Shown: in pieces, positions 6,954 through 53,520 of the stretch | Numbering within the stretch: the stretch's first letter is position 1 | Layout: the number at the start of each line of letters is the position of its first letter | Source: an uncultured archaeon | Lineage (GTDB): Archaea > Iainarchaeota > Iainarchaeia > Iainarchaeales > Iainarchaeaceae | NCBI GenBank assembly: GCA_902386385.1 | Contig: CABMIU010000025.1 | Location: 1 to 54,094 of the forward strand | Direction: 5' to 3' | DNA length: 54,094 nucleotides | Made by a program: the position numbers and the translations under genes | The notes under the pieces: generated by a model | Told to the model about the DNA's origin: nothing | Databases searched by the model: none | Seen by the model: only the letters and a program-made list of their open reading frames with translations

Positions 6954-8414
6954 ATGAAGATTATGCCAGAAAAATTTGATTTGATTGTAGTTGGCTCCGG
7001 GATTGCAGGCCTCAGCGCCGCCTTGGAGGCTGCAAAATCAAAGGGAAAATCCATCTGCCTCATTGACCGGTTCGATGAATCGCACTCTAACAGCTTCTGT
7101 GCACAGGGCGGAATTGCGTGCGCATTCGCTAAAAATGATTCATGGCAGAAGCATGCACAGGATACATTGGCGGCCGGAGCGGGCTTGTGCAACAATGAAA
7201 TAGTGAATCTTGTCACAAAAAAAGGGCCTGAGGCGATAAAAGAACTCATGGATTCGGGGCTTGAATTTGACGGCGGGAACGCGAAGCCCGAATTCGGGCT
7301 GGAAGGCGGTCACTCGGAGAAAAGGGTGCTGCACATCAAAGGCGACCAGACAGGGAAAGAGGTTACAAAATTCATGGCAAGGCTCGCAAAAGAACAAGGA
7401 AATATCCAAATCATCGGCAAGGCATTCATGGCAGGCATAGCGGCAGGCAACAATGGGTTTATTGGAATTGAGGCAATAGGCAAAGCCGATGCCATTTCAG
7501 GGAACGCTCTCGTAATTGCCACAGGCGGCTACGCAGCGTGCTTTGAAAAATCAACCAACCCTGAAACAACACTCGGAAGCGGGATTGCTGTTGCAGAGCA
7601 GGCCGGGTGCATCCTCGGGGGAATGGAATTCGTGCAGTTCCACCCCACAACCCTGCAATCAGCAATAGGCTCAAACTTTCTGGTGAGCGAGGCAGTGCGC
7701 GGCGAAGGCGGGAAAATAGTGGACGGAAACAACAGGGCGATAGTGAACCCACTGTGGACAAGGGACAAGGTAAGCATCGCCATTTATGAAGAGCTTGCGG
7801 CTGGAGGAAAAGTTTTTTTGGACGCCCGTGAGGTCAGGGCAGATTTTGCTGAACGGTTCCCTTCAATTTACGCAGAGCTGCTGAGGCACAAAATCAACCC
7901 TGAAACCGACCTGATACCCATTGAAGCCGCGGCACATTACACGATAGGAGGCATAAAAACCAATGAAAGGGCAATGGCAAGCATAAAGGGAATTTATGCC
8001 GCGGGAGAATGCTCCTGCTCCGGGCTGCACGGCGCGAACAGGCTTGCATCCAATTCGCTGCTAGAAGGCCTCGTGATGGGGAAGATTGCAGGGGCGAATG
8101 CCATTAGTGAAAAATCCGGCAAGCAAAGCCCCACAAAGCCAAATCTAAAAATTTCGCCTGAGAAGGGCGGCTTGTCCCAGGCAATTGCCCTGAAGCAGAT
8201 GAGGCAAGCAATGTGGGCAAATTGCGGAATCGTGCGCGAAACCGCAAAAATGGAAAGCGGACTCGCGAAAATAAAAATGCTTGAAAAAGAAATCGAAGTT
8301 TCTGAAACAATTGAAAATGCCGTTGCGCGGAACGCCTTGCTGGTTTCGCGAAGGACTTTTGAGGCGGCACTTGCAAGAAAAGGGAGCGTGGGATGCCATT
8401 GCAGGATAAACTAA
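6954..8414 (+). CDS. nadB: L-aspartate oxidase
   Basis: 486 aa with DLIVVGSGIAGLSAAL (FAD dinucleotide fold), ..HSNSFCAQGGIA.. and ..GLHGANRLASNSLLEG... Confidence 0.9.
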   Translation: MKIMPEKFDLIVVGSGIAGLSAALEAAKSKGKSICLIDRFDESHSNSFCAQGGIACAFAKNDSWQKHAQDTLAAGAGLCNNEIVNLVTKKGPEAIKELMDSGLEFDGGNAKPEFGLEGGHSEKRVLHIKGDQTGKEVTKFMARLAKEQGNIQIIGKAFMAGIAAGNNGFIGIEAIGKADAISGNALVIATGGYAACFEKSTNPETTLGSGIAVAEQAGCILGGMEFVQFHPTTLQSAIGSNFLVSEAVRGEGGKIVDGNNRAIVNPLWTRDKVSIAIYEELAAGGKVFLDAREVRADFAERFPSIYAELLRHKINPETDLIPIEAAAHYTIGGIKTNERAMASIKGIYAAGECSCSGLHGANRLASNSLLEGLVMGKIAGANAISEKSGKQSPTKPNLKISPEKGGLSQAIALKQMRQAMWANCGIVRETAKMESGLAKIKMLEKEIEVSETIENAVARNALLVSRRTFEAALARKGSVGCHCRIN

Positions 8415-15240: not shown

Positions 15241-15293
15241 CACTTTTCTTTTTGGTAAAGCTTTTTCTTTTCGTGTCAACGAAAAGAAAAAGG
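15241..15293 (-). repeat. 53-nt repeat, copy 1 (3' trailer of tRNA-Pro); contains the hairpin CTTTTTCTTTTCG-tgtcaa-CGAAAAGAAAAAG
   Basis: 47 of 53 positions are identical to 15412-15464, and only the central 6-nt linker differs. The oligo-T runs directly after the tRNA 3' end could also act as the terminator. Confidence 0.8.
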
Positions 15294-15330
15294 TTTGGGG
15301 TCGGGAGGATTTGAACCCCCGCCGCAGCGT

Positions 15331-15468
15331 CATTCGCAGCCTTTTTCTTTTTCTTGATAAGAAAAAGAAAAACGCTGGCGAAAAAGAAAAAGAACAGCCC
15401 ATAGGGCATTACACTTTTCTTTTTCCCCAGGCTTTTTCTTTTCGTGTCAACGAAAAGAAAAAGGCTGA
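15331..15468 (-). other. tRNA-Pro intron (BHB type, 138 nt)
   Basis: The BHB reads CAGCG/CGCTG, then a 4-bp TTCG/CGAA helix flanked by the 3-nt bulges GGT and TGA, then CAGCC/GGCTG. Confidence 0.8.
15412..15464 (-). repeat. 53-nt repeat, copy 2 (5' part of the tRNA-Pro intron)
   Basis: See copy 1 at 15241-15293. Confidence 0.8.
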
Positions 15469-15660
15469 CCCGAACGCTGAATCCTACCAGGCTAGACTAC
15501 GACCCCGAACAACAATATTCAAAATATTTGACTTCTATGCCCGTCATTTTAGGCAGAAACTTTTGCGGTGGGCATGACAAGGAAAATTTTGCATGAAAGG
15601 CTTAAATACCCGAAGGGGCTAATGTTTTAATTTGATTTCAGGGGAGTGGGGGAATAATTT

Positions 15661-31243: not shown

Positions 31244-31246
31244 TAC

Positions 31247-31348
31247 AAGCTTTTTCCTTTTCCCGGAAAGACCTTGTCCCCTTTGGTACGAGGCCTCGGC
31301 CCTCTAGGGCCGAGGAAAGTAAAAAGCTTGAGCAAAAAGGAAAAGAAC
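31247..31348 (+). repeat. Structured intergenic element, copy B
   Basis: The outer stem is AAGCTTTTTCCTTT (31247-31260) paired with AAAGTAAAAAGCTT (31316-31329). It encloses CCTTGTCCC..ACGAGG and a perfect 9-bp hairpin CCTCGGCCC-TCTA-GGGCCGAGG (31294-31315). The tract AAAAAGGAAAAGAAC follows at 31334-31348. Confidence 0.65.
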
Positions 31349-52790: not shown

Positions 52791-53056
52791 ACGCCAGCCC
52801 CCCCCTCAGCGCCGCTCCAAAAAAAATAAATTGCGTATCCATCGCCTCGCCTATACCGCACGAACCAGCCGGTTAGCCAAACAAAAAACGCCAAATGCCG
52901 AAAAAACAACCCGCACGAAAAAAGTTTTGGAAAATTATTGCACAAAAATATTCCTTCGGGAATTTTTTCCAGAAAACAGAAAAAGATATTTAAAGAGAAG
53001 CAGTGCATATTGCTACTGCGTATTGGGAGTTAAGGGGGTAAGCCATACTGCAAACG

Positions 53057-53131
53057 GTGGGGGAAACATCGGCTCGTTTGCAAAGGCGAGTGAGCAGTTC
53101 CCTGGCTTACCTTCTTTCACTTATTCTAACT
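53057..53131 (+). ncRNA. Candidate structured RNA (nested helices), identity unknown
   Basis: GGTAAGCCA (53057-53065) pairs with TGGCTTACC (53123-53131). This stem encloses TGCAAACG (53069-53076) paired with CGTTTGCA (53095-53102). A TATA-like ATATTTAAAG lies around 53006-53015. Confidence 0.25.
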
Positions 53132-53245
53132 TTAATCCCGCCCCGGACAGCCCCTTTTCGAGGTTCCGACAAGCCTTTTTAACCTTAACACGGGGATTTT
53201 CTATCGGAAAGGAAAAGGCAGCCGGCTATTTTCGCCGAAGGCAGG

Positions 53246-53299
53246 CTCTTTTTCTTTTTGGTTCAGCTTTTTCTTTTTCTCTCCGAGAAAAAGAAAAAG
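53246..53299 (+). repeat. Mirror-repeat pyrimidine tract plus a perfect 15-bp polypyrimidine/polypurine hairpin in the tRNA-Ser 5' leader
   Basis: The sequence reads CTCTTTTTCTTTTT (53246-53259), ggttcag, CTTTTTCTTTTTCTC (53267-53281), tcc, GAGAAAAAGAAAAAG (53285-53299). The element ends 4 nt before tRNA position 1. Confidence 0.85.
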
Positions 53300-53303
53300 G
53301 TGA

Positions 53304-53520
53304 GCGGGGATGGCAGAGCGGTCTAATGCGCACGCCTGGAATAACCCTTTTCTTTCTCTTGCGAGAGAAAGAAAAGCGTTAGCGGAAAAGAAAGAGAAGC
53401 TGGCAAGGCTTTCTTTTCTTTTTTCGCCAACGTTTTTTCTTTTCTTCGCGAAGAAAAGAAAAAAGGTTGCGGCCAGCGTGTTCCTTCACAGGAGCATGGG
53501 TTCGAATCCCATTCCCCGCG
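53304..53520 (+). tRNA. tRNA-Ser (anticodon GGA, class II) with a 133-nt intron at 37/38
   Basis: The 5' exon (53304-53341) is GCGGGGATGGCAGAGCGGTCTAATGCGCACGCCTGGAA. The 3' exon (53475-53520) is AGCGTGTTCCTTCACAGGAGCATGGGTTCGAATCCCATTCCCCGCG. The acceptor stem is GCGGGGA/TCCCCGC, a long variable arm is present, the T-arm is ATGGG-TTCGAAT-CCCAT, and the discriminator is G. Confidence 0.85.
53342..53474 (+). other. tRNA-Ser intron (BHB type, 133 nt)
   Basis: The BHB reads CACGC/GCGTG, then a central CTGG/GCGG helix (3 of 4 positions pair) flanked by the 3-nt bulges AAT and CCA, then AACC/GGTT. Confidence 0.75.

Follow-up and report, generated by a model that had tools for sequence, protein, structure and literature searches.

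The leader of the tRNA-Ser(GGA) gene in the stretch of archaeal DNA analyzed here (contig CABMIU010000025.1; the whole 54-kb stretch is referred to as the window) carries at 53246-53299 an element of three blocks, a pyrimidine (Y) tract, a Y arm and a purine (R) arm, in which the tract is the mirror image of the Y arm and matches the R arm in parallel orientation. This element, M1, is one of six cassettes of the same design (M1-M6), all of which belong to the two intron-containing tRNA genes of the window. The account that we favor, tentatively and with somewhat less than even confidence, is that M1 represents one copy of a three-block triplex cassette of class IV, which in DPANN archaea would be set hairpin-first against the exon ends of stable RNAs, and whose conserved property would be the capacity to form a Y.R-Y triple helix, triplex formation itself being, as we infer, what is kept. 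The comparison of related loci supports the triple-helix reading as a property of the sequence; as a structure and a function it is a proposal.

The Leader Cassette and Its Fit to a Triplex Motif

A sequence-only reading of the same DNA had described a mirror tract and a perfect 15-bp hairpin beside tRNA-Ser, and both its coordinates and its sequences proved exact: read in parallel, the tract meets the purine arm with C to G and T to A at 14/14 positions. In the minimum free energy (MFE) fold, the Y/R helix is prolonged beyond its base, across a G.G mismatch, by an outer stem of 3 bp, in which the TCA of the linker pairs with the TGA at 53301-53303. Hairpin and outer stem together form an inverted repeat with 19-nt arms that are 95% complementary, and this layout of linker and outer stem recurs in other cassettes.

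M1 has the block order of a class IV intrastrand triplex (Hoogsteen pyrimidine, pyrimidine and purine, 5'->3') and, under the triplet rule of that class (stem of at least 8, at most 1 mismatch), it offers 14/14 T.A-T and C.G-C triplets in parallel. Its loops are 3 nt and 7 nt long, the latter inside the Hoyne range of 0-10 nt and 1 nt over the maximum of the ITxF search (1-6 nt; PMC4666352). In duplex DNA, the succession of CTCTTTTTCTTTTT, a 7-nt spacer and CTTTTTCTTTTTCTC constitutes a mirror repeat of the H-DNA type. The cassettes are A/T-rich with isolated C/G, a composition that, by the published stability rules (PMC4666352), would suit the pyrimidine motif rather than the purine motif.

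Taken alone, M1 separates mirror from direct register weakly because its arm is nearly periodic. The arm, (CTTTTT)2CTC, is nearly self-mirror, and the tract therefore also agrees at 12/12 positions with the Y arm read directly and, in antiparallel orientation, is complementary to the R arm at 12/12; only the CTC end tells the mirror match (14) from the direct one (12). Shuffling of the tract attains the observed mirror run with p about 0.005; the discrimination between registers comes from related loci.

Six Cassettes at Exon Ends

The window contains six perfect Y/R hairpins whose arms measure 10 nt or more, each with a mirror tract. They are located in the tRNA-Ser leader, at both ends of the tRNA-Ser intron, at both ends of the tRNA-Pro intron and in the tRNA-Pro trailer, and 100 dinucleotide-preserving shuffles of the window yielded 0 perfect Y/R hairpins of this kind. 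The order is Y tract, about 7 nt, Y arm, short loop, R arm, 3-5 nt and exon. Each cassette has, on exactly one strand, its pyrimidine tract 5-12 nt upstream of the hairpin, and the exon end lies 3-5 nt from the hairpin on the other side, the hairpin always being exon-proximal. At the 5' boundary of an exon (leader, intron 3' end) the RNA reads tract and then hairpin, which is class IV, and at the 3' boundary (intron 5' end, trailer) it reads the reverse complement, hairpin and then purine tract, which is class II. The cassette is repeated and non-random, and its orientation is fixed relative to the exon. M1 had been presented as a stand-alone feature of the leader; it is instead one of six copies, three of which are inverted, with hairpin and purine tract in the RNA. 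The counterpart that had been proposed for the tRNA-Pro trailer, a Y-R hairpin with a mirror purine tract, is indeed present (M4); it stops 3 nt from the tRNA-Pro 3' end and shares its exact hairpin sequence with M6 at the intron 5' end.

Conservation of the Mirror Register in Related Loci

Contigs that are syntenic with the window or share the tRNA-Ser 5' exon were taken as relatives; loci from these, or from the scan of a genome collection (see below), carry L numbers. The best named relatives of the neighboring aminotransferase are found in metagenome-assembled genomes (MAGs) of Candidatus Diapherotrites. Five homologous leaders were aligned (alignment A1), those of four tRNA-Ser(GGA) orthologues, the window counted, and that of the tRNA-Ser(CGA) paralogue of L128 (Table 1). 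Counted from the helix base, the first interruption falls at position 7 in the window and in L002, 8 in L001 and L128, and 6 in L148, and each time it shifts jointly in the tract, the Y arm and the R arm. The window and L148 have C.G-C as the apical triple, L002 and L001 have T.A-T. The same behavior is observed in the leaders of L136/L149, L152, L154 (Ser-TGA) and L155 and in that of the second tRNA of L001, and in L154 a shorter hairpin is accompanied by a matching shorter tract. Throughout these leaders, the tract can be seen to stay parallel-complementary to the purine arm while the C/G interruptions change position.

The same preference is seen when the cassettes are counted. The longest exact run is longer in the mirror than in the direct register in 32 of the 34 unique archaeal cassettes, equal in 2 and worse in 0, so that the covariation check suggested with the sequence-only reading came out in favor of the mirror symmetry. 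With the best offset granted to both registers, 43 cassettes (529 arm positions, 29 distinct arms) match at 92.8% of positions in mirror and 80.5% in direct register; because the copies are related by descent and not independent, these mirror and direct counts are not probabilities. Irregular arms give 13 vs 9 in L148, 14 vs 10 in L001 and 12 vs 7 in the Ser-TGA leader of L154. Given the number of distinct sequence patterns, chance or periodicity appears inadequate as an explanation, and the mirror-register result supports, at the level of sequence comparison, selection for Hoogsteen complementarity. In the comparison of the window with L002, a tiny sample, the class IV leader cassette has one triple-compensated change and the class II intron cassette one that is uncompensated.

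In two relatives (L151, 7480-7585; L154, 7515-7615), the linker of the tRNA-Ser(GGA) leader is split by an insertion of ~55 nt with two small hairpins. Compared by eye, these hairpins show compensatory changes (GCAGG/CCTGC vs GCACC/GGTGC), and the topology of the split linker is nearer to that of the element for nuclear expression (ENE).

Table 1. Cassettes, tRNA genes and flanking features of the window, with the tracts and Y arms of the leaders in alignment A1. Mirror and direct values are matches of the tract in the two registers.
Feature	Position	Strand	Sequence or parts	Remarks
M1 Y tract	53246-53259	+	CTCTTTTTCTTTTT	Candidate Hoogsteen third strand, tRNA-Ser leader
M1 linker	53260-53266	+	GGTTCAG, 7 nt	Direct reading
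M1 Y arm	53267-53281	+	CTTTTTCTTTTTCTC	Direct reading
M1 loop	53282-53284	+	TCC, 3 nt	Direct reading
M1 R arm	53285-53299	+	GAGAAAAAGAAAAAG	15/15 Watson-Crick with Y arm
Tail	53300-53303	+	GTGA, 4 nt	Between hairpin and tRNA nucleotide 1 (expected RNase P site)
M2, tRNA-Ser intron 5' end	53347-53399	-	On RNA strand: Y arm 53347-53359, loop, R arm 53364-53376, linker, purine tract 53384-53399	Class II in RNA, class IV on minus strand; mirror 13, direct 7
M3, tRNA-Ser intron 3' end	53409-53469	+	Y tract 53409-53424, linker CGCCAACG, Y arm 53433-53446, loop CGCG, R arm 53451-53464, GGTTG	Mirror 14, direct 11
M4, tRNA-Pro trailer	15243-15292	+	Tract 15243-15253, linker GGTAAAG, Y arm 15261-15272, loop, R arm 15281-15292	Class IV on plus, class II in RNA; mirror 11, direct 9
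M5, tRNA-Pro intron 3' end	15342-15394	-	On plus strand: hairpin 15342-15372, purine tract 15380-15394	Class IV in RNA; mirror 14, direct 12
M6, tRNA-Pro intron 5' end	15414-15463	+	On plus strand: tract 15414-15424, Y arm 15432-15443, R arm 15452-15463	Class II in RNA; mirror 12, direct 9
tRNA-Ser(GGA)	53304-53520	+	Anticodon-loop intron ~133 nt (read as 53342-53474)	ARAGORN, introns allowed; Rfam tRNA 38.6 bits, 135-nt insertion
tRNA-Pro(CGG)	15296-15506	-	Anticodon-loop intron 138 nt (15331-15468)	ARAGORN, introns allowed
TATA-like box	53174-53181	+	CTTTTTAA	TTTATAA at the homologous position in relatives (alignment A1)
Purine-rich segment	53205-53219	+	CGGAAAGGAAAAGGC	Predicted Watson-Crick/G-U partner of M1 Y tract (MFE), triplex competitor
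Window leader			Tract CTCTTTTTCTTTTT; Y arm CTTTTTCTTTTTCTC	
L002 leader			Tract TTCTTTTTCTTTTT; Y arm CTTTTTCTTTTTCTT	
L001 leader			Tract TTCTTTTCTTTTTT; Y arm CTTTTTTCTTTTCTT	
L148 leader			Tract CTCTTTTTCTTTT; Y arm CTTTTCTTTTTCTC	
L128 leader			Tract TTTTCTTTTTT; Y arm CTTTTTTCTTTT	

Both tRNA genes are invisible to default scans because of their anticodon-loop introns of 133-138 nt. Neither default ARAGORN nor Rfam with its gathering thresholds detected a tRNA in the window, and detection needed introns to be allowed (aragorn -i) or the E-value mode of Rfam. In such genomes, tRNAs are probably undercounted. No RNase P RNA was found within the window.

Two further non-coding sites of the window deserve mention. 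At 52986-53125 lies a conserved element of ~100 nt (GGGAGTTAAGGGGGTAAGCCATACTGCA ... CCCTGGCTTACC) with a long stem and a variable apical domain, which is preceded by a TATA-like ATTTAAA and has no Rfam match; it is also found upstream of tRNA-Ser in L001 and L002, and alone after an aminotransferase gene in L157. At 31246-31347, two G+C-rich hairpins are bracketed by a pyrimidine tract (CTTTTTCCTTTTCC) and a purine tract (AAAAAGGAAAAGAA), which are parallel-complementary at 12/13 positions. This site lies in the 113-nt gap that separates two A-type ATPase genes, those of subunit C (AC39) and subunit F, and its fold has a z-score of only -1.75.

Distribution in Other Archaea and in Bacteria

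A hairpin-only pattern was used to scan species-representative genomes, and the matches listed are mostly bacterial loci. The archaeal ones among them belong to Micrarchaeota, 'Nanoarchaeia' and unclassified archaeal MAGs and have the cassette within or beside tRNA genes, some of them apparently, by eye, as non-canonical introns of the D-loop and T-loop regions. In L097 and L112 the cassettes adjoin T-loop sequence, and in a Micrarchaeota MAG (L017, 7940-7993) a Y/R hairpin directly after GGGCCCGTAGCTCAGCCTGG interrupts the D-loop region of a tRNA, resembling a non-canonical intron. L127 (5965-6075) also has a class II cassette (CTTTTTTTCTTT / AAAGAAAAAAAG, then AAAAAAAGAAAA), which starts 8 nt downstream of the D box in a likely C/D-box small RNA (sRNA); this sRNA scores 37 bits against Rfam sR1, below the gathering score of 45, and its C, D', C' and D boxes were recognized by eye. 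This last case suggests that the association of the cassette may extend to stable-RNA boundaries in general.

The bacterial loci had been chosen as negative controls. Among the matches listed they bear the same mirror tract and thus provide no clean null, and shuffles together with the comparison to the direct register were used instead. MAGs of Selenomonadaceae (L067, 2343-2556 and 4358-4434; L093; L109) display irregular arms of 22-26 nt with mirror runs of 19-21 nt, and the bacterial mirror and direct values reach 21 vs 10. The cassettes of Selenomonadaceae stand upstream of ribosome-binding sites and include a divergent pair before divergent genes. In Clostridiales RUG MAGs (L062, L030, L050, L057 and others) several distinct covarying cassettes per contig occupy intergenic regions, and the purine tract directly adjoins an AGGAAGG-like ribosome-binding site on the sense strand. 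By crude and unreliable open reading frame calls, 11 bacterial cassettes are sense class IV, 6 sense class II, 12 convergent and 2 divergent, which yields no usable orientation bias toward genes.

Probable Transcription and Proposed Folding of the Leader

A TATA-like box, CTTTTTAA, is the probable promoter of pre-tRNA-Ser, and such a box stands upstream of the cassette in several loci. Its location upstream of the tract suggests that the M1 tract is probably transcribed as part of a leader of ~100 nt. A promoter inside the hairpin, which would leave the tRNA leaderless, was considered and rejected, there being no TATA-like sequence at about -26 and a conserved one upstream of the tract. A site for a dimeric protein was likewise rejected, as the mirror repeat is not dyad-symmetric.

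M1 reads in the RNA-competent orientation, downstream of the conserved box. In the model that we propose, its 15-bp hairpin would form first in the leader RNA, and the U-rich tract would then settle in the major groove of the hairpin to build up to 14 U.A-U and C+.G-C triples, in equilibrium with the alternative stem between the tract and 53205-53219. The geometry would be that of a 'paperclip' triplex, with the last triple beside the short outer stem, the end of which would lie 1-4 nt before tRNA nucleotide 1. The triplex would end 4 nt before the RNase P site, and cleavage by RNase P would leave the 3' end of the leader buried at the duplex/triplex junction, as in MALAT1. The outcome would be a compact, self-contained and exonuclease-resistant leader, with a layout analogous to the 3' end of MALAT1/MEN-beta. 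At the DNA level, the cassettes would most simply serve as inverted terminal modules of mobile or convertible bulge-helix-bulge (BHB) introns. In its most complete form, the proposal would be that of a MALAT1-like device of DPANN archaea, a portable cassette with 14 stacked triples (15 if the next G stacks on the terminal G-C), the longest natural series known, which would lie immediately 5' of the RNase P sites of real tRNAs, as well as at BHB intron 3' ends, and cap the released leader or intron RNA, its inverted pairs being the termini of mobile tRNA introns. Taken as a whole, we judge this device unlikely.

Points Against the Triple Helix and Alternative Explanations

Several observations weigh against a triple helix in the leader. 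Protonated C would be required in 3/14 triples of M1, the base just 3' of the tract is usually G, whereas the mirror predicts C, and in the split linkers of L151 and L154 the tract matches at 9 positions only (9/10 and 9/11, respectively). ViennaRNA places the M1 tract in a 17-bp stem with 53205-53219 that includes four G-U pairs, from which the tract would be freed at a cost of 14.4 kcal/mol, and the two tracts of an intron can pair together in the predicted fold. According to these models, the upstream stem is a serious competitor of the triplex in the window genome. It is strong as well in L001 (two leaders) and L148, intermediate in L128 (5.5 kcal/mol) and weak or absent (0-4 kcal/mol) in L136, L152, L002, L154 and L155, and because it is weak or absent in several relatives it is not the conserved feature. 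In introns and trailers that have only a class II cassette, the purine tract is without a partner. It is also conceivable that the T5 runs of leader and intron might act as archaeal terminators. As of 2020, no natural RNA triplex of more than six consecutive triples was known (PMC7102945), and the BoxC/TMECO motif of E. coli, which has neither promoter nor terminator activity and no clear function, is associated only with genomic rearrangement (PMC4666352). Lastly, class II, in the RNA sense, accounts for 3/6 copies in the window and for roughly half of the total, and the purine tracts of these copies mirror the hairpins as well as the tracts of class IV do.

The inverted copies also limit what can be claimed at the RNA level. 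It has been reported that intrastrand pyrimidine-motif triplexes form in RNA (Hoyne 2000, as cited in PMC4666352) and that the purine motif does not (Semerad and Maher 1994, as cited in PMC4666352). Because class II copies, which are of the purine motif in RNA, are equally preserved, RNA-level selection alone cannot explain the family; their inability to form a triplex as RNA suggests that the cassette is also copied and inherited, or selected, as DNA. The parallel pyrimidine third strand put forward in the sequence-only reading holds as a sequence relation, but an RNA-only version of it does not cover a family with inverted copies. By design, a class II cassette is the reverse complement of a class IV one, and the two ends of an intron are inverted copies; those of the tRNA-Pro intron form a 48-nt inverted repeat, 75% complementary, as terminal inverted repeats of the miniature inverted-repeat transposable element kind do. 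No target-site duplication is visible at the GGAA and AGCG junctions of the tRNA-Ser intron. The leader cassette of L001 is nearly identical to M3, which in the window lies at the tRNA-Ser intron 3' end. The tRNA-Ser introns of the window (53342-53474) and of L002 (13481-13613) differ at four positions next to aminotransferases that are 76% identical, yet L001, the aminotransferase of which is 81% identical to that of the window, has an unrelated intron of 84 nt (7537-7620), and the tRNA-Ser genes of L136, L148 and L152 are intron-less. Identical copies elsewhere, the incongruence between introns and proteins and the intron-less alleles suggest that cassettes and introns have been copied or exchanged.

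It could be argued from these copies that the element acts in DNA only, as an A/T-rich H-DNA repeat resembling potential intrastrand triplex (PIT)/BoxC motifs. Any folding of it would then take place in single-stranded or supercoiled DNA, and it would be selfish or promote instability and would simply be tolerated by the pre-tRNA, in portions of stable-RNA genes that can be dispensed with. We regard this as a real possibility, albeit a rather unlikely one. Both orientations are present and equally preserved, the complement of class IV is class II by construction (Holder et al., PMC4666352), and Y tract and Y arm make a classical H-DNA mirror repeat. Near-identical copies at different sites, together with an intron distribution incongruent with protein similarity, fit the same explanation, as do the scattering of this architecture in bacterial intergenic regions in both orientations to genes and the perfect Watson-Crick arms, in which G-U is nearly absent, as one would predict were both strands important. 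When hairpins were searched for under relaxed rules, with G-U vs A-C mismatches as signs of RNA- vs DNA-level selection, only shifted registers of perfect hairpins were retrieved. A purely selfish repeat, however, does not predict the strict placement 3-5 nt from mature RNA ends; in addition, the leader position is conserved in divergent tRNA-Ser loci, the linker insertion of L151/L154, with its compensatory changes, suggests a structured leader RNA, and the composition is optimal for U.A-U triples.

The predicted folds give rise to a different proposal, in which stacked Y/R hairpins would shield the folding of the tRNA and the mirror would be a by-product of a near-periodic (CTTTTT)n. In the MFE folds of leader and intron every tract is paired Watson-Crick/G-U (z-scores of -5.4 and -6.6), the linker CGCC|AACG is able to close two adjoining helices, and the direct match of M1 almost equals its mirror match. 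We nevertheless consider this proposal improbable, given that Watson-Crick constraints do not predict a tract that is the reverse of the Y arm, that the mirror rule is kept by the irregular arms cited above, the bacterial ones included, and that the pairing with the upstream partner is imperfect (4/17 G-U) where the mirror match is exact, the partner itself being weak or absent in the five relatives named above and in introns and trailers with class II only. Even less credence is given to transcription punctuation, by which the T-runs would be archaeal oligo-T terminators that insulate stable-RNA genes on both strands. T5-T7 runs do occur right after the tRNA-Pro 3' end and after the likely C/D sRNA of L127, and a Y/R palindrome puts T-runs on both strands; yet the same runs lie between the TATA-like box and tRNA-Ser and within introns that must be transcribed, and termination requires neither mirror symmetry nor a perfect hairpin. 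A scan for bacterial-type intrinsic terminators found none at the cassette, where an A/T-rich stem is followed by GTGA and the tRNA.

Implications

A triple helix beside an RNase P site is so far known only from vertebrate long non-coding RNAs and from some viral and transposon RNAs. If the RNA triplex of the favored cassette forms, this solution would extend to Archaea, a natural triplex would exist far beyond six consecutive triples, and the dozens of variants of one cassette would allow triple covariation to be tested unusually cleanly. If the reading at the DNA level is true, the PIT class, so far without an assigned function, would gain a genomic niche at stable-RNA exon boundaries, and the cassettes would provide a handle on the gain and exchange of long BHB introns in DPANN genomes.

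Comparison with Known Systems

PIT/BoxC motifs have been catalogued in prokaryotes since 2000 (PMC4666352), and the statement that nothing comparable had been described therefore stands for archaeal tRNAs and not beyond them. The PIT of Hoyne and Maher (Hoyne et al. 2000; Hoyne and Maher 2002) is the intrastrand triplex motif of Holder et al. 2015, and BoxC is the TMECO of E. coli; one class on a strand implies the other class on the complement, stems of more than 11 nt were never found in scrambled genomes, and tRNA has 0 mentions in that paper (PMC4666352). The tRNA-flanking cassettes resemble PITs in having three consecutive blocks on one strand (Hoogsteen, Y and R) with short loops, the complement carrying the other class, and in being multi-copy and non-coding. 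Characterized PITs, on the other hand, are G/C-rich, 9-nt, purine-motif (class II) elements of Proteobacteria and Cyanobacteria, whereas the tRNA-flanking cassettes are A/T-rich, have arms of 10-15 nt (up to 26 nt in bacteria) and an extra outer stem of 3-5 bp and, in DPANN, adjoin tRNA or sRNA exon ends and form intron termini. With H-DNA, M1 shares the mirror repeat of 14-15 nt with a 7-nt spacer made by its Y tract and Y arm; unlike the cassette, which always has a perfect one, H-DNA needs no third, Watson-Crick block on the strand.

Sharing of sequences between introns and leaders has reportedly been described by Fujishima, Sugahara and colleagues for the disrupted tRNA genes of Thermoproteales and Nanoarchaeum. 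Like archaeal BHB introns, the introns considered here are long, occupy canonical and non-canonical positions, share modules with their flanks and vary in presence among relatives. Our searches of the literature on archaeal tRNA introns and leaders turned up no intron termini made of homopyrimidine/homopurine hairpins and mirror tracts, no account of the motif at archaeal tRNA boundaries and none of a MALAT1-like layout of triplex, RNase P site and tRNA. Two reviews of RNA triple helices likewise contain no prokaryotic element of this sort.

The comparison with MALAT1 drawn in the sequence-only reading is apt. M1 and MALAT1/MEN-beta have in common the order of a U-rich Hoogsteen strand, a U-rich Watson-Crick strand and an A-rich tract, with an RNase P substrate, in M1 a presumed one, within a few nucleotides. 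At the level of sequence, M1 also has the U.A-U code with isolated C+.G-C, in the same U5CU5 / A5GA5 form as MALAT1_th11, an engineered variant, which was crystallized with 11 consecutive triples and contains UUUUUCUUUUU twice plus ...AAAAAGAAAAA, an A5GA5-containing tract (Ruszkowska et al. 2020, PMC7102945). The purine arm of M1 lies 4 nt before the start of tRNA-Ser, and the A-rich tract of MALAT1 ends at the 3' end made by RNase P. The MALAT1 triplex has 10 triples and is interrupted by a C-G doublet (PMC7102945), which the cassette lacks. M1 is a plain hairpin with a 7-nt linker, whereas MALAT1 has an ENE internal loop, flanking stems and A-minor contacts; an ENE-type internal loop is absent from M1, and only L151 and L154 have a two-hairpin insertion between the strands. 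The cassette further differs from MALAT1 in that its downstream substrate is a real tRNA, that inverted copies exist, that no long upstream RNA to be stabilized is known for it, and that it is archaeal and known from sequence alone. The motif class is already known, as PIT, here of class IV.

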